A stretch of 64,000 nt of DNA from positions 2,251 through 66,250 of the forward strand of contig CAZBKJ010000001.1 of the NCBI GenBank assembly GCA_964492495.1. The letters run 5' to 3'. Made by a program: the position numbers and the translations under genes. This document shows, piece after piece, positions 2,968 through 52,625 of the stretch (positions are counted from its first letter, which is position 1; each line of letters begins with the position of its first letter). The notes beneath the pieces are model-generated. The model had not been told where the DNA came from, did not search any database, and worked only from the letters and a program-made list of their open reading frames with translations. Source of the DNA: an uncultured Pseudomonadales bacterium (lineage in GTDB: Bacteria; Patescibacteriota; Microgenomatia; UBA1400; UBA12028).

Positions 2968-3456
2968 ATGGGTGTTCTTCAATCAGCAGCATCAGCAGTA
3001 GGACAAGCAGTGTCCGACGTCGCGGCAGACGTCAAAGATGGAGTAGTGGGAGCAGCAACCGACTCAGTCAAACAAATTGCAAAAACTCCGTTGGATATTT
3101 TGGAAGAATTACTTGGGTCTTCAGGTGCTGGTGGGGGAGCAAATGAGCAGAAATCAGAAGAGGAGCAGGGAGCAAGTAGTCCAGCTAATAAAGCAGCTAT
3201 CGCACAAAAAAATGCCCAAGATGATGCGTTCAAGGTTCAACAGCATCAAGAGTTGCATCAAAAGATCATGCAGCAATCTCAAGGCTACTATGAGCAAAAA
3301 AAGCAAGCTGATGAGCAACAACGACAGATATCAGAGCAACAAAAAGAACAAGAAAAATTCCAGATAAAACAGCTGGAAAAACAAAAAAGTCATGATTATG
3401 CCTTGCAGGCAGCAAAGGATGCATCAAGCGCAGAAAAGAGAATGGGTGCAGGATAG
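2968..3456 (+). CDS. hypothetical Gln/Ala/Lys-rich low-complexity protein
   Basis: ORF track 2887..3456; the ATG at 2968 (MGVLQSAASAVGQ...) is the more plausible start. C-terminal half is Q/E/K-rich and coiled-coil-like. Confidence 0.4.
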   Translation: MGVLQSAASAVGQAVSDVAADVKDGVVGAATDSVKQIAKTPLDILEELLGSSGAGGGANEQKSEEEQGASSPANKAAIAQKNAQDDAFKVQQHQELHQKIMQQSQGYYEQKKQADEQQRQISEQQKEQEKFQIKQLEKQKSHDYALQAAKDASSAEKRMGAG

Positions 3457-3481
3457 ATAGTCTTGTGAGTTTTACATATTT

Positions 3482-3748
3482 ATGCCAAAACTTCCTGAAC
3501 AGTCTCCACTTATCTCCAAAGCATTGAAGGAAAATCCTACACCACTAAATCCATCGGGACTTGATGGTGTTTTTATCGGAAGCGTACTGATTTTTGCTGG
3601 TCTGCTTCCATCGTTGTCACCTAATTCTCTTGAGGAGTTAAAAGTACTTGCTCAGAGAACGCTTGAAACTGGTCTCGCTTTTTTTTCCATAGGATTGTTT
3701 GTTTTGGCAGCAAAAAATATGAGATCGCTCTGCGATAAACGAAAGTAA
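3482..3748 (+). CDS. small membrane protein, hypothetical
   Basis: 88 aa with two hydrophobic segments. Confidence 0.35.
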   Translation: MPKLPEQSPLISKALKENPTPLNPSGLDGVFIGSVLIFAGLLPSLSPNSLEELKVLAQRTLETGLAFFSIGLFVLAAKNMRSLCDKRK

Positions 3749-14767: not shown

Positions 14768-14774
14768 ACTTCTC

Positions 14775-14930
14775 ATGAATCTTTCAGTTGGTATAGTAGG
14801 GTTGCCCAACGTCTGTCCCGGTACTAAAAACTTTATTTTTCGCAGTCGGCTTATTCAGCCGGTTCGAAAATCACGTTTTCATACAGGACTCGACAGTTCA
14901 CATAGTGCAGTAGCCAAGAGGTTTTTATGA
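14775..14930 (+). CDS. upstream ORF (51 codons). Its first 13 residues, MNLSVGIVGLPNV, duplicate the YchF N-terminus. Its TGA stop overlaps the ychF ATG (ATGA).
   Basis: Translated by hand; absent from the ORF track because it is under 60 aa. Copy 1 and copy 2 differ at three codons (ctt/tta, tca/agt, gtt/gta), all synonymous. Confidence 0.4.
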   Translation: MNLSVGIVGLPNVCPGTKNFIFRSRLIQPVRKSRFHTGLDSSHSAVAKRFL

Positions 14931-14965
14931 ATTTAAGTGTAGGTATAGTAGGGTTGCCCAACGTC
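14775..14965 (+). repeat. direct repeat of the ychF 5' end (~39 bp at 14775-14813 and 14927-14965) flanking a 113-bp unique insert
   Basis: An identical 25-mer ggtatagtagggttgcccaacgtc occurs in both copies. Confidence 0.8.
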
Positions 14966-16015
14966 GGTAAGTCCACACTTTTTAATGCGTTGTTAAAACA
15001 GCAGGTAGCTTTGGCTGCCAATTATCCTTTTGCGACCATTGAACCAAACGTTGGAATTGCTCAAGTTCCAGACGCTAGGCTAGAAAAACTGGCAGAGGTT
15101 GTCCATACAACGGTACTCAAACCCGCAACTGTTGAGTTTGTAGATATCGCGGGCTTGGTAAAGGGTGCTAGTACCGGTGAAGGCTTGGGAAATAAATTCC
15201 TCTCACATATCCGTGAAACTTCGGCAATTTGTCATGTATTGCGTGCGTTTAGCGACTCTGAAATCCTTCGTGAGGGGGCAGTTGGCCCGAAAGAAGATTT
15301 GGAAATCATCCGAACGGAGCTTCAATTAGCTGATCTTGCGACACTTGAAAAACAACCGCAACCAAAAGGTGCAGTGACTCCAGAGGCCAAAGAAAAATGG
15401 GACGTGATTGTGAAGTGTAAAGAAACAATCAACAGAGGAAAGATGGTAAACACCCTTGAGCTTACTCCCGAAGAAAAAGACATTGCCAAGGAACTCAATC
15501 TTCTCACAGCCAAAGCAGAAATCTTTGCGATCAATGTGGATGAAGGGGAAATAGCAACAAGAGGCAAGGGGGAAGAGATCAGCAAGATAGCATCAGAGTT
15601 GGGCGAGAATCCGGATTCTATAGTGGTCATTAGTGCTCGAATTGAGAGTGAACTTTCATCACTGTCAGAAAACGATCAAAAAGAATACATGAAGGAACTC
15701 GGAATAGAAAAAAGTGGATTGGAGCGCCTCGCTGAAACTGCATACAAGACACTGGGACTTCAAAGTTTCTTAACCGCTGGCGAACTAGAAGTGCGAGCGT
15801 GGACGATCAAACAAGGAACTACTGCTCCACTCGCGGCTGGGGCAATTCACACTGATTTTATTAAGAAATTTATCAAAGCGAACATTGCAACCTACGACGA
15901 TTTTATTTCATACAAAGGATGGAAGGCTCTCAAAGATGCCGGAAAAATGCGAATTGAGGGAAAAGACTACGTGATGCAGGAAGGTGATGTCGTGGAGTTT
16001 ATGATTGGTGCATAG
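14927..16015 (+). CDS. ychF: ribosome-binding ATPase YchF (Obg-family GTPase)
   Basis: G1 GLPNVGKST; TGS-like C-terminal domain; RBS aagagg 6 nt upstream. Confidence 0.95.
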   Translation: MNLSVGIVGLPNVGKSTLFNALLKQQVALAANYPFATIEPNVGIAQVPDARLEKLAEVVHTTVLKPATVEFVDIAGLVKGASTGEGLGNKFLSHIRETSAICHVLRAFSDSEILREGAVGPKEDLEIIRTELQLADLATLEKQPQPKGAVTPEAKEKWDVIVKCKETINRGKMVNTLELTPEEKDIAKELNLLTAKAEIFAINVDEGEIATRGKGEEISKIASELGENPDSIVVISARIESELSSLSENDQKEYMKELGIEKSGLERLAETAYKTLGLQSFLTAGELEVRAWTIKQGTTAPLAAGAIHTDFIKKFIKANIATYDDFISYKGWKALKDAGKMRIEGKDYVMQEGDVVEFMIGA

Positions 16016-21401: not shown

Positions 21402-22589
21402 ATGCAACCTGTAAAAAATCTTACCATCGCTGTTCTTTTCTTTGTCTTGCTCGTCATATCCGCTCTAGGCGGAGCATTGGCCGACAGACTTTTTGTGTTC
21501 AAACCGCTTGATAGTATTACCAAAAAAATTTCCGGAACGAGTGTCTCAAGTAACGAACCTCTTACTCGCTCAATCGTGCATGAACAGTCAGATGTGATTG
21601 ATGTCACAGAGAAAGTGTCAGCTGGTGTAGTCACTGTCTCAATTACCAGAGAGCAAAGAATCCGGCAACGATCGCCACTTTTGGATATGGATCCATTTGG
21701 GATATTTGGATTACCACAACAGGAAGAATCAGGACAAACCCGAGAGATAAATCAAGATATTGGGAGTGGATTTGTCGTCAATGCATCCGGACTTATTGTG
21801 ACGAATAAACACGTCGTGTCCGATACAACTGCCAAATACCATATTATTACGAAAGAAGGAAAAGAATATGATGTGCAAAAAGTGTATCGAGATCCGGTCA
21901 ACGATTTGGCAATTCTCCAAGTAGAAGCATCACTGCAGTCCATGGATTTAGGGAACTCTGATGACCTAAAAGTAGGACAGTTTGTCATCGCAATCGGTAC
22001 TGCCCTTGGAGAGTTTCGACACACAGTAACAACTGGAGTGATCTCAGGTCTTGGTCGCGGAATCACCGCAGGAGATGGATTTTCATTTGCAGAGCGACTG
22101 GATAATGTCATCCAAACAGATGCAGCGATTAACCCAGGAAATTCAGGAGGGCCACTCCTCAATTCCTCTGGTCAAGTGATCGGTGTCAACGTGGCAGTGG
22201 CACAGGGAGCAAACGGAATTGGCTTTGCTCTTCCAATCAATGTGGTGAAGGATTCTATCAAAAACTTTGAAGCTACAGGAAAATTCTCTCGACCGTTCCT
22301 TGGAGTCCAGTATCGAATTATTCCAAAACGAACTGCTCTACTCAATGACATGCCGGCCGGGGCTGTCATCATCGAAGTTGTGGAAGGTGCGAGTGCTGAC
22401 AAGGCAGGACTTGAACCAGGTGATGTCATTACAAAATTTGATGGTGTTGATCTCACAAGTGATTCAAACGAGAATGCACTCTCAAAAGAGATCTCAACAC
22501 ACAAGGTTGGCGACAAGGTGGAGGTGGAATACATCCGCGATGGAGAGAGAAAAACGACAACTGTTACGTTGGAGGAGAGTGGAGAGTAA
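21402..22589 (+). CDS. htrA: HtrA/DegP-family serine protease with C-terminal PDZ domain
   Basis: GSGFVVNASGLIVTNKHVV (His), D, and GNSGGPLLNSSGQVIGVN (Ser). Start taken at MQPVKNL (21402); ORF track start is 21345. Confidence 0.85.
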   Translation: MQPVKNLTIAVLFFVLLVISALGGALADRLFVFKPLDSITKKISGTSVSSNEPLTRSIVHEQSDVIDVTEKVSAGVVTVSITREQRIRQRSPLLDMDPFGIFGLPQQEESGQTREINQDIGSGFVVNASGLIVTNKHVVSDTTAKYHIITKEGKEYDVQKVYRDPVNDLAILQVEASLQSMDLGNSDDLKVGQFVIAIGTALGEFRHTVTTGVISGLGRGITAGDGFSFAERLDNVIQTDAAINPGNSGGPLLNSSGQVIGVNVAVAQGANGIGFALPINVVKDSIKNFEATGKFSRPFLGVQYRIIPKRTALLNDMPAGAVIIEVVEGASADKAGLEPGDVITKFDGVDLTSDSNENALSKEISTHKVGDKVEVEYIRDGERKTTTVTLEESGE

Positions 22590-22750
22590 AGGCAAGGTTC
22601 AAGGTTTCAGAGCTTCTCGACTGCGGCTAGCTGGGCTAGCCTGCGCTCGAAGAATAAAAACTATATTTCGGTGGACAGGTAGTTTACAGAACGACAGCGG
22701 GGACAAGGTATCAGAGGTAGGGTACAACGGACTAGGAACGAGTTACGAGT
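22563..22750 (+). repeat. dispersed intergenic repeat, copy A (GA-rich degenerate units + core cttctcgactgcg-GGCTAGC-tgg-GCTAGCC-tgcgctcgaagaataaaa)
   Basis: Shares its core, the GA-rich gaggcaagg / gtatcagaggt units and the stop-codon context GGAGAGTAAAGG with copy B at 39125-39420. Confidence 0.7.
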
Positions 22751-22753
22751 AAT

Positions 22754-23563
22754 TTGATACAAGAAGATAGCTGGATTCCCATATTCATGGGAATGACTGT
22801 GATACAAGTGTATACTTCATTTATGTCCAGTAACATTCGTATTCTCCTTTTAATTCTCTTACTAGTTGGTTCTGCTTTTTTTAATTTTCACCAATATAAC
22901 ACAATTCAAAATCTCCAAAGTAAAAATCTACAACTTTTCAAGGAAAGAGATGGTTTGCAGGCTCAGCTCAAAGAACTTCAAAAAAACTATCAGCTCGTTT
23001 TTGAAGATAGAGCAGAGTTTATAGAGCCAAATTCTCCAGAGGAAACGTTCTCATTTCAAACGTTTGGAATTAACTCTCCACTTTTTGAAACAAAAAAAGT
23101 TGAATCACAGGAATATTTATACCGAGGAAAAACAATTATTCGAAAAACTATTTATTTAGATTCAAAGAGTGATTCCGTCTATTCATATGGGGTAAGCGTC
23201 TGGCAGTTCCCAGATACAAAAAAAGATTTTGATCCCTTATATCTTTCCATCTTTGATGGGTATGAAAATAGAGGAAACCCTCATCGTATCTCTGATGTTA
23301 TTGCGGAAGCGGCAGGGAAATATGTAACAAAAAACAACATCCAACTACATTGGTCCGTAGATACAAGCGACCTATATTCAACAAAACTAATAAATTTCAA
23401 CGGTATTTCTTTGTATGCAACAGATAATTCTGTTATTTTAGACGGACCTATATTTTACCGAGTCTTTGCATCACTGCATGTAGAAGAAGAGAATCTTCAT
23501 TCAGTCTCGAAAATTGCTACAAAAGAATTGATGAGAATTGCGGACACTATTACGTTTCGATAA
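22754..23563 (+). CDS. hypothetical membrane-anchored protein
   Basis: 269 aa; N-terminal TM (IRILLLILLLVG), then a coiled-coil region; AT-rich. Confidence 0.4.
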   Translation: MIQEDSWIPIFMGMTVIQVYTSFMSSNIRILLLILLLVGSAFFNFHQYNTIQNLQSKNLQLFKERDGLQAQLKELQKNYQLVFEDRAEFIEPNSPEETFSFQTFGINSPLFETKKVESQEYLYRGKTIIRKTIYLDSKSDSVYSYGVSVWQFPDTKKDFDPLYLSIFDGYENRGNPHRISDVIAEAAGKYVTKNNIQLHWSVDTSDLYSTKLINFNGISLYATDNSVILDGPIFYRVFASLHVEEENLHSVSKIATKELMRIADTITFR

Positions 23564-23570
23564 ACAGAGT

Positions 23571-38889: not shown

Positions 38890-39150
38890 GTGTTTACTTT
38901 TTCTATGTTCCATACAATAGGCGAAAAGGTAGAGGTGGCTGGTGTCTATGCCAAAGGGTATTTTACCCCAAAAAAGCTCAAGTGGGGAACAAAAATCCTT
39001 CAAATAGAGAAAGTTACCCTGGTTTCTGAGATTCGAGATGGAGATACAAAGAAGAGAATCTACTCCTTTACCTCTGGAAAAGAGCTCTACAGGCTGTTAT
39101 TTGACCGAGAAACGGAAGTTTGGGTATTAGAAGAGTTGTGGGTGGAGTAA
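38890..39150 (+). CDS. hypothetical small protein
   Basis: 86 aa. The last ~8 codons and the stop lie inside repeat copy B. Confidence 0.35.
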   Translation: MFTFSMFHTIGEKVEVAGVYAKGYFTPKKLKWGTKILQIEKVTLVSEIRDGDTKKRIYSFTSGKELYRLLFDRETEVWVLEELWVE

Positions 39151-39420
39151 GGGAGAGAAAGAGGCAAGGGGTCAGAGGCAAGGGGCGAGGTATCAGAGGT
39201 CAGGGGCAAGGAGTCGGGAGATAGCAGGGGCAAGAGGTCAGAGGTCAGGTATCAGGGACGAGGCAAGTTTGTCGTTTATCGAAAGCTAGCAAGAACAGAT
39301 CTTCTCGACTACGGCCAGCTACGCTAGCCTTCGCTCAGGATGACAAACGGAGGGCTTCTCGACTGCGCTCGAAGAATAAAAGGGAAATTGCCTCAACGGC
39401 AAACTTGAGTAGTCGAAGAA
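39125..39420 (+). repeat. dispersed intergenic repeat, copy B (GA-rich degenerate ~14-nt units x6, one full core with hairpin, one core with the hairpin deleted)
   Basis: gtcagaggcaagggg / gtcaggggcaagga / gtcagaggtcaggt units; cttctcgactacggccagctacgctagccttcgctc and cttctcgactgcgctcgaagaataaaag. Confidence 0.7.
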
Positions 39421-39493
39421 AAAAGTGGGAGATTAGTAGATTAGGACAAACAAACGGGAGAGACGTAAGAGATCAGAAAAAAGAACAATTTCT

Positions 39494-40720
39494 ATGCAAA
39501 AGATTTTTTTTCATGTGGATATCAATGCGTACTTTGCGACCATGCTTCAGCAGGAAAATCCGGCCTTACGAGGAAAACCTGTGGGGGTGGTAAAAGCAGA
39601 AGGACGAACCTGTATCATCGCCTCTTCCAATGAAGCAAAAAAATTTGGAATCGCAACAGGATCGCTCGTCAAAGATGCCAGGAAACTCGCTCCTGATCTA
39701 GTGTTAATCCCAGCGAACTTTGACATCATGCTGTCTGCGACTCGAAAATTGAAAAAGATTTTTGAAGAGTTTTCACCTAGTGTGCATGTATTCTCACTGG
39801 ATGAAGTATTTTTAGATCTTACTGGCTGTGAAGCAATCATGGGAGTGCCGCTCACCTATGCTGACACGATTCAAAAACGGATCAAAGAAGTGTTGGGTGA
39901 GTGGGTGAAGTGTAATGTGGGAATTTCTCACAACAAATTACTTGCAAAAATGGCGAGTGAAATCGCCCCAAAAGGAACTGCTCTCACTATTGATGCATCA
40001 AATGTTACTGAAGTTTTATCCACGGTTGAGTTTAAGGATGTCTGTGGAATAGGAAGGGGCTTGTCAAAAAAACTACACTACTTAGGAGTTCATCACCCAA
40101 TAGAGATTAATTTGCTTGATGACAAAACTCTACACGATACCTTTGGTCCACATTGGGCAGTGGAACTCAAAAAAATTGCACGAGGGGAAGAAACACATTT
40201 GTTTACGCATGAGAAAGAAGTGACGTACCAACAATCAGTCGGGCGAACCATCACGGGGTGGAAGCTCTGTGATGATGAAGAACAGATCCAACGAGTTCTT
40301 CTCAATTTACTGGAAGAAGCGACACACAAGCTTCGGGCTATGGATTTGGTGGGACGAAAAGTAGGTGTATCTTTGTGGGGACATGACAGACATTGGGGAG
40401 AATATCGAACTTTGCAGTATTGGGTACGACATACCGATGAAATTTGGAAACTCCTCTATGATGGGATGTATAAAAAATGGAGACGAGACTTTCCGGTTAT
40501 CAAATTTGGTGTGTGGATTGGGGAGTGTAAACCAACTTCAGTAAGTCCTCAGTGTTTTCTGCCAGAATGGGAAAAGAGAGAAAAGATCTATGGTATAGTT
40601 GATAGTATTAATGATAAGTTTGGATCATTTACGCTCTATCCAGCAAAGCTATTAGGAGCCCCAATTATCAAGCCGGAAGTGACAGGATATTTGGGAGATA
40701 GAGTATATTTAGGGTTATAA
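39494..40720 (+). CDS. dinB: Y-family DNA polymerase (DinB/Pol IV-like)
   Basis: FFHVDINAYFATMLQQENPALRGKPVGVV...SLDEVFLDLTG (catalytic D..D/E motifs of ImpB/UmuC). Confidence 0.8.
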   Translation: MQKIFFHVDINAYFATMLQQENPALRGKPVGVVKAEGRTCIIASSNEAKKFGIATGSLVKDARKLAPDLVLIPANFDIMLSATRKLKKIFEEFSPSVHVFSLDEVFLDLTGCEAIMGVPLTYADTIQKRIKEVLGEWVKCNVGISHNKLLAKMASEIAPKGTALTIDASNVTEVLSTVEFKDVCGIGRGLSKKLHYLGVHHPIEINLLDDKTLHDTFGPHWAVELKKIARGEETHLFTHEKEVTYQQSVGRTITGWKLCDDEEQIQRVLLNLLEEATHKLRAMDLVGRKVGVSLWGHDRHWGEYRTLQYWVRHTDEIWKLLYDGMYKKWRRDFPVIKFGVWIGECKPTSVSPQCFLPEWEKREKIYGIVDSINDKFGSFTLYPAKLLGAPIIKPEVTGYLGDRVYLGL

Positions 40721-52079: not shown

Positions 52080-52085
52080 CACCTG

Positions 52086-52158
52086 TGACCCCACCCGAAT
52101 TCGAATCGGGGTTACCAGGATGAGAACCTGGTGTCCTAGGCCTCTAGACGATGGGGCC
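52086..52158 (-). tRNA. tRNA-Glu (anticodon CUC), 73 nt, CCA not encoded
   Basis: Reverse complement reads GGCCCCA-TC-GTC-TAGAGGCCTAG-GAC-A-CCAGG-TTCTCAT-CCTGG-TAAC-CCCGA-TTCGAAT-TCGGG-TGGGGTC-A. This gives a 7-bp acceptor stem (one GU), a 3-bp D stem as in bacterial tRNA-Glu, and a TTCGAAT T-loop. Confidence 0.85.
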
Positions 52159-52419
52159 ATGCGCCATTTTTTCTAAATGGTCCGTAAGCATGATCTTTAC
52201 AGCTCTTTTACCTTTTGTAGTTTTTAAGTAATTTTCTCTTCTTCTCGCATCTTTCTCTGAAAGAAACGCTTCGTAGAATATGAGTCGGACAGTACCCATT
52301 CTTTTTGTTGAATACACACCTTTACTGAGATGCTTACGGATTCTTTCTTTTAAGTTTGCCGTAAATCCTGTGTATATTTTCCCAGTATCTCTACTTTGTA
52401 AGAGATATACGTAATACAT
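52144..52419 (-). CDS. GIY-YIG nuclease superfamily protein (small, UPF0213-like); its last ~5 codons overlap the 5' end of tRNA-Glu
   Basis: YYVYLLQSRDTGKIYTGFTANLKERIRKH (GIY...YIG). The ATG is at 52419; the ORF track uses TTG at 52425. Confidence 0.7.
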   Translation of the reverse strand: MYYVYLLQSRDTGKIYTGFTANLKERIRKHLSKGVYSTKRMGTVRLIFYEAFLSEKDARRRENYLKTTKGKRAVKIMLTDHLEKMAHGPIV

Positions 52420-52488
52420 TAGCAATACTCTATCATGAACCAGAATAAATTCGATTCATGACCATGAACCGTGCTTTGCACTGGTTCA

Positions 52489-52625
52489 CGGGACGATGGG
52501 GCCAAGCTGAGCTTGGCTATACTTGCGCTTAGCGCAAGTGCCTCTTCAAACCAATACTAATCCGAGCTTAGCTCGGGTGCCAAACTGATGACTATCTTAC
52601 TTACGCTGGGCGCAAGTGCCTCTAT
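52489..52625. repeat. array of short perfect hairpins plus repeats: tRNA-Glu 5'-end fragment copy (gacgatggggcc), three 7-bp-stem/3-nt-loop hairpins (52501-17, 52522-38, 52562-76), and a 14-mer gcgcaagtgcctct x2
   Basis: Read directly from the sequence between the two GIY-YIG genes. Confidence 0.6.

Follow-up and report, generated by a model that had tools for sequence, protein, structure and literature searches.

Background

The DNA considered here is a 64,000-nucleotide (64-kb) stretch of contig CAZBKJ010000001.1, from an uncultured bacterium of the Patescibacteriota, and is referred to below as the window. Two of its intergenic spacers, one following htrA (locus A) and the other between a gene for an 81-aa protein and dinB (locus B), contain copies of a short hairpin repeat. 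A sequence-only reading had described in these spacers an element of about 190 nt, present with the same architecture at both loci. The shared core is real and runs as CTTCTCGACTGCG-GGCTAGCtggGCTAGCC-TGCGCTCGAAGAATAAAA at 22613-22659, with related stretches at the second locus, but it is only 47 nt long. Beyond this core the two loci have in common only GA-rich pieces (13 nt exact; 28 nt at 79% identity).

Hairpin repeats associated with a nuclease have been described for the Ssn GIY-YIG proteins (Chenal et al., Nat Commun 2025, PMC11893778). The NTS repeat, CGTCATTCCCGCGMAVGCGGGAATCYRG, includes the dRS3 of Neisseria, and the 'Ssn-related motifs' (SRM) form a broader class of 20-50-nt hairpins with the published consensus HGTCWYN(0-2)YYVSBRHN(0-5)WNVSBRGN(0-2)RNCYNB. 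SRMs flank single-domain GIY-YIG genes of about 94 aa (Ssn, CDD family cd10448), and this SRM-ssn-SRM layout has been likened to an insertion sequence (IS). The Ssn proteins act on single-stranded DNA (ssDNA) only; they bind the hairpin of just one strand and cut upstream of it (PMC11893778).

The two loci and their repeat units

The features of locus A are as follows.

22590..22612, plus strand: GA-rich lead AGGCAAGGTTCAAGGTTTCAGAG, its first base directly after the htrA stop
22613..22659, plus strand: unit A, with the core given above; covariance model score 41.5 bits
22613-22616 paired with 22649-22652: outer stem (P1) of unit A
22617-22622: conserved 5' joiner of unit A, TCGACT
22625-22631 and 22635-22641: variable hairpin of unit A, GGCTAGC, loop tgg, GCTAGCC
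22644-22648: conserved 3' joiner of unit A, CGCTC
22653-22659: tail of unit A, AATAAAA
22700..22727, plus strand: GA-rich piece, 79% identical to part of the locus-B heptad array and holding an exact 13-mer, AGGTATCAGAGGT
22771..22798, minus strand: dRS3/NTS-like hairpin, reading AGTCATTCCCATGAATATGGGAATCCAG on that strand
22590..23570: lineage-specific segment of 981 bp between htrA and the convergent release-factor gene, defined by comparison with relatives

Those of locus B are as follows.

39151..39262, plus strand: GA-rich heptad array (GGYMAGR)n, beginning right after the stop of the 81-aa gene
39216..39470: segment of 255 bp present in the window and absent from the related contig L227, bounded by GAGTC and GAGATC
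39301..39348, plus strand: unit B1, decayed or chimaeric, CTTC-TCGACT-ACG-GCCAGCtacGCTAGCC-TTCGCTC-AGGA-TGACAAAC; 10.3 bits
39355..39381, plus strand: unit B2, intact and minimal, without inner hairpin, CTTC-TCGACT-G-CGCTC-GAAG-AATAAAA; 44.2 bits

Locus B thus holds two units, the decayed, hairpin-bearing B1 and the intact minimal B2. The sequence of B2, CTTCTCGACTGCGCTCGAAGAATAAAA, is that of both ends of unit A joined with the inner hairpin omitted. Locus A aligns with locus B over 41 nt at 85% identity (22608-22648 with 39296-39336), and the two also share an exact 19-mer (22641-22659 with 39363-39381) and an exact 14-mer. The inner hairpin sequence of unit A is not conserved in B1, where it has one mismatch, and is absent from B2. 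In B1 the outer stem is broken, and the minus strand of its 3' half bears an NTS-type GTCAT flank. The architecture is not the same at the two loci: the GA-rich material lies upstream of the units in B and on both sides of the core in A, a clear heptad array is found at 39151-39262 only, and B2 has no GGCTAGC hairpin. At both loci GA-rich sequence with a 7-nt period follows the stop codon with no intervening base and surrounds the hairpin units. Units in L161 and L043 also have heptad arrays nearby, (AGTCAGA)n and (GGTACGA)n respectively.

A covariance model of the unit, run with filters off over the 64 kb, finds exactly two full units, A (match at 22605-22660, 41.5 bits, E 2e-10) and B2 (39347-39382, 44.2 bits, E 3e-11), and matches B1 weakly (39293-39346, 10.3 bits).

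Unit A begins 24 nt downstream of the htrA stop codon (TAA, 22587-22589), in sense orientation. The sequence-only reading had placed this stop inside the repeat and had suggested that insertion may have remodelled the C-termini of both upstream proteins. The homologues refute this. GGAGAGTAA encodes the native, conserved ...ESGE* end of HtrA, and the ending ...VTLEESGE* is exact or conservatively substituted in most of the 45 closest homologues listed (to about 58% identity). The 81-aa protein ends ...EELWVE* (or LEELWTE or LEEIWVE) in all five homologues found. Since both termini are conserved, the repeats at both loci begin after native stop codons.

What, then, do the spacers contain in related genomes? 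In relatives whose HtrA is 71-73% identical, the gap between htrA and the convergent release-factor gene is 3-6 nt. In the window it is filled by the 981-bp segment, which contains unit A, the GA-rich pieces, the NTS-like hairpin and an open reading frame (ORF) of 246 aa (22823-23563). Likewise, the 81-aa gene (38905-39150) and dinB (39494-40720) are separated by 3 nt in relatives and by 344 nt here. The units of both loci therefore lie in lineage-specific insertions between genes that normally abut. The insertion at locus B is polymorphic between strains: contig L227, a noisy sequence with 95% and 90% identity to the window on either side of the gap, lacks the 255 bp that hold the distal GA array, an inverted fragment (39266-39292), B1 and B2, and retains a shorter GA array without units. 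The GAGTC and GAGATC at the edges of this segment are ambiguous as a target-site duplication, as is the CTGCG that flanks the inner hairpin of unit A on both sides. No terminal inverted repeats were found around the copies in the window.

The NTS-like hairpin of locus A lies 115 nt from unit A. It was noticed as TGGATTCCCATATTCATGGGAATGAC at 22772-22797, a pattern with one match in the window against 0.03 expected. It fits the dRS3 definition, ATTCCC-N8-GGGAAT, and has both NTS flanks (GTCAT... and ...TCYRG), and its inner stem differs from that of NTS by compensatory changes. NTS-like motifs with GC-rich inner stems are also present in the unrelated loci L055, L144 and L156.

Two neighbouring genes deserve a comment. 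The 246-aa ORF occurs in this lineage only and lacks a Pfam match; a hydrophobic segment at its N-terminus precedes a coiled coil. Comparison of the inserted ORFs with PHROGs and PADLOC gave only weak matches to Rz-like spanins (E about 2e-4), which come from the membrane-plus-coiled-coil region. The 81-aa protein is conserved, belongs to no Pfam family and is always directly upstream of dinB (window, L228, L229). One possibility is that it is a partner protein, so far uncharacterised, of the patescibacterial DNA polymerase IV.

Distribution and structure of the repeat family

Are these copies the product of a meaningless local duplication, or of chance resemblance? Only two loci are present in the 64-kb window, and matches to short patterns are individually weak (the 13-mer with up to two mismatches has three matches in the window against 1.05 expected). 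However, a strict 22-base pattern, CTTCTCGACTG-N(0-25)-CGCTCGAAGAA, searched in the contigs of one genome per species, identified 57 stretches in at least five phyla, against about two by our own estimate of chance. Together with the model E-values given above and the 64 units present in independently fetched loci (see below), this refutes both a chance resemblance and a local two-copy duplication, the probability of which we consider negligible. The hits are in Patescibacteria, Omnitrophota, Actinomycetota, Bacteroidota and Proteobacteria; their sources include many Omnitrophota, several classes of Patescibacteria, Gordonia, Flavobacteriia, metagenome-assembled genomes of Gammaproteobacteria, and Sphingomonadales. 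A looser 17-base pattern was applied to viral contigs. Its long-gap matches there are mostly non-complementary and chance-like, and only the class with a 1-nt gap is clearly enriched (29 of 124); the viral matches are excluded from our counts.

From 5' to 3' the unit consists of a 4-nt stem arm, TCGACT, an insert, CGCTC, the complementary 3' arm and a tail. In minimal units the insert is one base; long units have about 8-25 nt here, often a hairpin of unrelated sequence, and the inner hairpin is missing from 38 of 100 aligned units. Patescibacteria and Omnitrophota have the tail AATA(A/T), whereas it reads AACCG in Gordonia and (A/T)GACA in Flavobacteriia. The tail gives the unit an orientation; within the 100-unit alignment, at least 70-90% of members conserve the AATA.

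The outer stem covaries. Stem types outside the search pattern are all complementary, and include GTTC/GAAC (24 cases), CCCC/GGGG, TCCC/GGGA, CGTC/GACG, TTTC/GAAA, CCTC/GAGG, CTCC/GGAG and others. In an independent set of 65 distinct units, from loci fetched by protein similarity, 99.2% of stem cells pair and each of the four base pairs shows changes in both partners; not one of 500 shuffles attained this. The 65-unit alignment was fitted to the model, which favours structure; slid controls were far lower. A stem longer than 4 bp is not supported, as only 15-61% of cells pair beyond it. An alternative register, with a UCGA/UCGA stem, is energetically favoured and was rejected because covariation at the outermost pair contradicts it. 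K-turn, T-loop, attC, hammerhead and LexA/Cheo-box motifs were also compared by eye, and none fitted the unit.

A covarying stem is also what would be expected of an RNA structure, and the location of unit A just past the htrA stop, in sense, would suit a 3' untranslated region hairpin that stabilises or terminates the transcript. The sequence-only reading had similarly suggested a family encoding small RNAs. The RNA fold of unit A is about -19 to -23 kcal/mol, but its z-score on the plus strand is weak (-0.7). There is no U-tract, promoter-like site or terminator-like site in 22400-23000, the tail being AAUAAAAAC. Against Rfam, no match reached the gathering threshold, and relaxing the cut-off to E<=10 gave just two snoRNA matches without meaning. 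Orphan units lack a consistent orientation relative to genes, as judged with a crude ORF caller, and the units beside GIY-YIG genes are inverted across the gene. In addition, relatives lack the element at the orthologous loci. G-U asymmetry, considered as a means of choosing the RNA strand, gave no clear signal once a constant G-U pair was set aside. A cis-acting RNA or a small RNA from the spacer is, in our view, quite improbable. As ssDNA, unit A, whose hairpin has about 14 bp, folds on the minus strand at -11.8 kcal/mol (z -3.5), and the NTS-like hairpin folds at -6.5 kcal/mol (z -2.9).

Units are found singly, as inverted doublets, nested in the insert of another unit and, in Gordonia, in tandem. 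Nested units, some reversed within the loop of the inner hairpin and others oriented like the host unit, are present in L034 (2695-2778), L021 (194-257), L063, L144, L156 and L173. Nesting suggests self-targeted insertion at the TCGACT|CGCTC junction. The tandem arrays of Gordonia repeat either the minimal unit or just its 3' half about every 25-28 nt (L016 4733-4808; L022 2550-2620; L006 5500-5570). In L004 and L026 a unit is directly 3' of a tRNA gene.

The proposal that the repeat is a REP- or MITE-like (miniature inverted-repeat transposable element) dispersed family is thus supported and was, if anything, understated. It spans several phyla, has a covarying stem, takes nested and doublet forms, differs in presence between strains at locus B and, as described below, includes in one genome a composite with terminal inverted repeats.

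Association with small GIY-YIG genes

Among the 57 loci selected by the unit pattern, three (L024, L027 and L031) have a small GIY-YIG ORF directly flanked by units. The encoded proteins are single-domain members of Pfam PF01541 of 89-91 aa. An independent sample was obtained by using the L027 and L031 proteins alone to fetch 47 metagenome loci, which were then scanned with the covariance model. These loci contain 64 units in 218 kb, 44 of them no more than 120 nt from the gene. Close to the GIY-YIG gene (up to 120 nt away) there are 4.03 units per kb, compared with 0.097 per kb elsewhere, a 41-fold difference. A unit is present within 120 nt in 21 of the 47 loci, with units on both sides in 12. 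Polarity is nearly invariant: upstream of the gene, the unit closest to it lies on the minus strand in 18 of 19 loci, and downstream the closest unit lies on the plus strand in all 14. Units inverted on both sides of the gene are the SRM-ssn-SRM architecture.

Could the units instead be mobilised in trans? Repetitive extragenic palindromes (REP), with the BIMEs and REPINs built from them, occur in Enterobacteria and Pseudomonas singly, as inverted doublets and in mosaics, and flank the gene of RAYT, a putative enzyme acting on ssDNA hairpins. The units resemble them in being single, doublet or clustered and in flanking a presumed enzyme gene. An element of REP/REPIN or MITE type could be moved by a RAYT, an IS200/IS605 Y1 enzyme or a transposase recognising terminal inverted repeats, in which case the GIY-YIG genes would be mere neighbours or would insert into the repeats. 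Inverted doublets and nesting recall REPINs and BIMEs, and a Patescibacteria bin, H51-bin228_1, has units within a composite of about 170 nt on three contigs (L042 5400-5560; L055 minus strand 3300-3500; L043 1-120). This composite consists of a reverse TTTC-type unit, a 17-nt spacer and a CTTC-type unit, with terminal inverted repeats of 16 nt, GAGTTTGGTGAATAA, at its ends; in L055 this terminal repeat is found next to a canonical NTS-like hairpin as well.

Against mobilisation in trans, no transposase is known beside the units, although L001-L179 and the window were screened for GIY-YIG ORFs only, with no systematic search for RAYT. No GTAG-type REP head is present in the 100-unit alignment. 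The 41-fold concentration and the fixed polarity, moreover, are expected if the units are the ends of a GIY-YIG cassette. We regard an element mobilised in trans as unlikely. The units also differ from REP sequences in that these are specific to a species or genus, whereas the unit core is common to several phyla, and in that the partner is a GIY-YIG protein, not an HUH Y1 transposase.

GIY-YIG genes and other repeats in the window

The window has two GIY-YIG genes of its own.

52144..52419, minus strand: 'ssn-2', single-domain GIY-YIG, 91 aa
52629..52898, minus strand: 'ssn-1', single-domain GIY-YIG, 89 aa, in tandem with ssn-2

These genes were considered as the cognate nuclease of A and B2 and were rejected: the model detects no units next to their relatives, which have hairpins of other kinds. 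As the window's GIY-YIG genes are non-cognate, A and B2 are orphan copies within it. The hairpins around ssn-1 and ssn-2 are of different kinds. They lie between and upstream of the genes; two are copies of GGCACTTGCGC-yya-GCGyAAGTA, at 52520-52545 and 52598-52623, and another, with the conserved loop ACC-AGTGCAAAGCAC-GGT, is at 52468-52485. This loop recurs, on different stems, upstream of the homologous gene in L230. The hairpins of 52468-52623 are probably the recognition repeats of the ssn-1/ssn-2 clade itself.

The ssn-2 gene is located between exact 13-nt direct repeats, 52147-52159 and 52492-52504 (chance expectation 0.03). The repeated sequence is the beginning of a tRNA-Glu gene (52085-52158, in the minus-strand region 52085-52504), and the final codons and TAG stop of the ssn-2 ORF fall within this tRNA gene. 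In relatives from other samples (L230, L236 and L240) the GIY-YIG ORF likewise ends in the 5' end of tRNA-Glu, with a duplicate of that end upstream. It looks as if ssn-2 is a mobile cassette that targets the 5' end of tRNA-Glu.

Elsewhere in the window, a 47-nt direct repeat (14770-14816 and 14922-14968, 81% identity, spaced 152 nt) contains GGTATAGTAGGGTTGCCCAACGTC, which would encode the GTPase G1-type motif GIVGLPNV, just upstream of a ychF-like gene. It may be a partial duplication of the 5' end of that gene.

Discussion

We think it probable that A, B2 and the decayed B1 are orphan members of a multi-phylum set of hairpin repeats that flank a clade of GIY-YIG proteins of about 89 aa, and that this set is the counterpart of the NTS and SRM repeats. 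Under this proposal, the strand reading (A/T)TATT-NTTC-GAGCG...AGTCGA-GAAN, the minus strand in the window, would fold once replication, uptake or transfer leaves the DNA single-stranded. At unit A, the analogy with NTS would make the minus strand the one recognised. The cognate nuclease would bind the fold and cut just 5' of it. Cutting, or recombination between copies, would then spread the cassette and leave solo hairpins at gene boundaries.

Several observations weigh against this proposal. The 64-kb window has no GIY-YIG gene of the L027/L031 clade; ssn-1 and ssn-2 share just 33% identity with the L031 type and have other hairpins around them. In 26 of the 47 fetched loci no unit is detectable by the model beside the gene, though on visual inspection most of the loci that lack a model match show variant units there, such as CCCT-TCGACT...CGCTC-AGGG-AATAT, GCCT-TCGACAGGCTC-AGGC and GTTC-TCCACAAGGTC-GAAC. 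The PDB entries nearest to the associated proteins, 1ZG2 and 1YWL, are both UPF0213 proteins. The adjacency could also come from nuclease cassettes inserting into pre-existing repeats. The minimal unit B2 folds weakly as ssDNA (-2.3 kcal/mol). Finally, the units match the published SRM consensus nowhere in the window or the loci, using an implementation that finds canonical NTS; the AT-stemmed NTS-like hairpin at 22771-22798 likewise fails this consensus.

A more far-reaching possibility is that a unit and its small GIY-YIG gene form an autonomous, IS-like element that moves via ssDNA and seeds solo hairpins at the gene boundaries of the reduced Patescibacteria and Omnitrophota genomes. The ssn-2 clade, which sits in the 5' end of tRNA-Glu between exact 13-nt duplications, with a like arrangement in distant relatives, would be in keeping with this. 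We hold it to be rather doubtful.

How do the units compare with the repeats already described? Like NTS and SRM, they are short, multi-copy hairpin repeats with a directional, non-palindromic flank and are found across phyla. As a family, though not in the orphan copies of the window, they lie on both sides of a single-domain GIY-YIG gene of about 90 aa in the manner of insertion-sequence ends, and unit A is an inverted repeat of 20-50 nt able to form a hairpin. They differ in what is conserved. In NTS it is the outer stem, ATTCCC/GGGAAT, whereas here the joiners TCGACT and CGCTC are constant and the 4-bp outer stem covaries. The 5' flank is GTCAT in NTS and (A/T)TATT in the Patescibacteria and Omnitrophota subfamily of units, and the inner hairpin of the units is optional. 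The kind of element is one already known, the Ssn-associated hairpin repeats, and the subfamily falls outside the published consensus. A literature search, which included the core strings and peptides from spurious translations, found no paper describing the TCGACT/CGCTC subfamily.

Two further families offer partial parallels. The Rickettsia palindromic elements (RPE) insert in frame into coding genes and are a precedent for proteins remodelled by repeats. The repeats in the window, in contrast, are wholly outside coding sequence, and both protein termini are native. The STRR of heterocystous cyanobacteria are intergenic tandem repeats of heptanucleotides with strand-asymmetric composition. 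They can be compared with the GA-rich array only, which is also intergenic, has a 7-nt period and is strand-asymmetric in composition; the array here is GGYMAGR and in another phylum, and its tie to the units is co-location at both loci alone.

Conclusions

For annotation of this genome, the spacers after htrA and before dinB are recent insertions, and neither regulatory RNA genes nor remodelled coding ends. For the repeats themselves, the association reported here connects a defined enzyme family with sequences, very common yet rarely described, that are built as 'stem, TCGAC...GCTC, stem, tail'. It would extend the Ssn/SRM system described in 2025 into the Patescibacteria and Omnitrophota, and it indicates that the published SRM consensus overlooks entire subfamilies of repeats. 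The units and the GIY-YIG proteins beside them are a candidate new nuclease and target pair for single-strand DNA tools. If the more doubtful IS-like interpretation were true, Ssn-type nucleases would be a new kind of transposase or homing enzyme.

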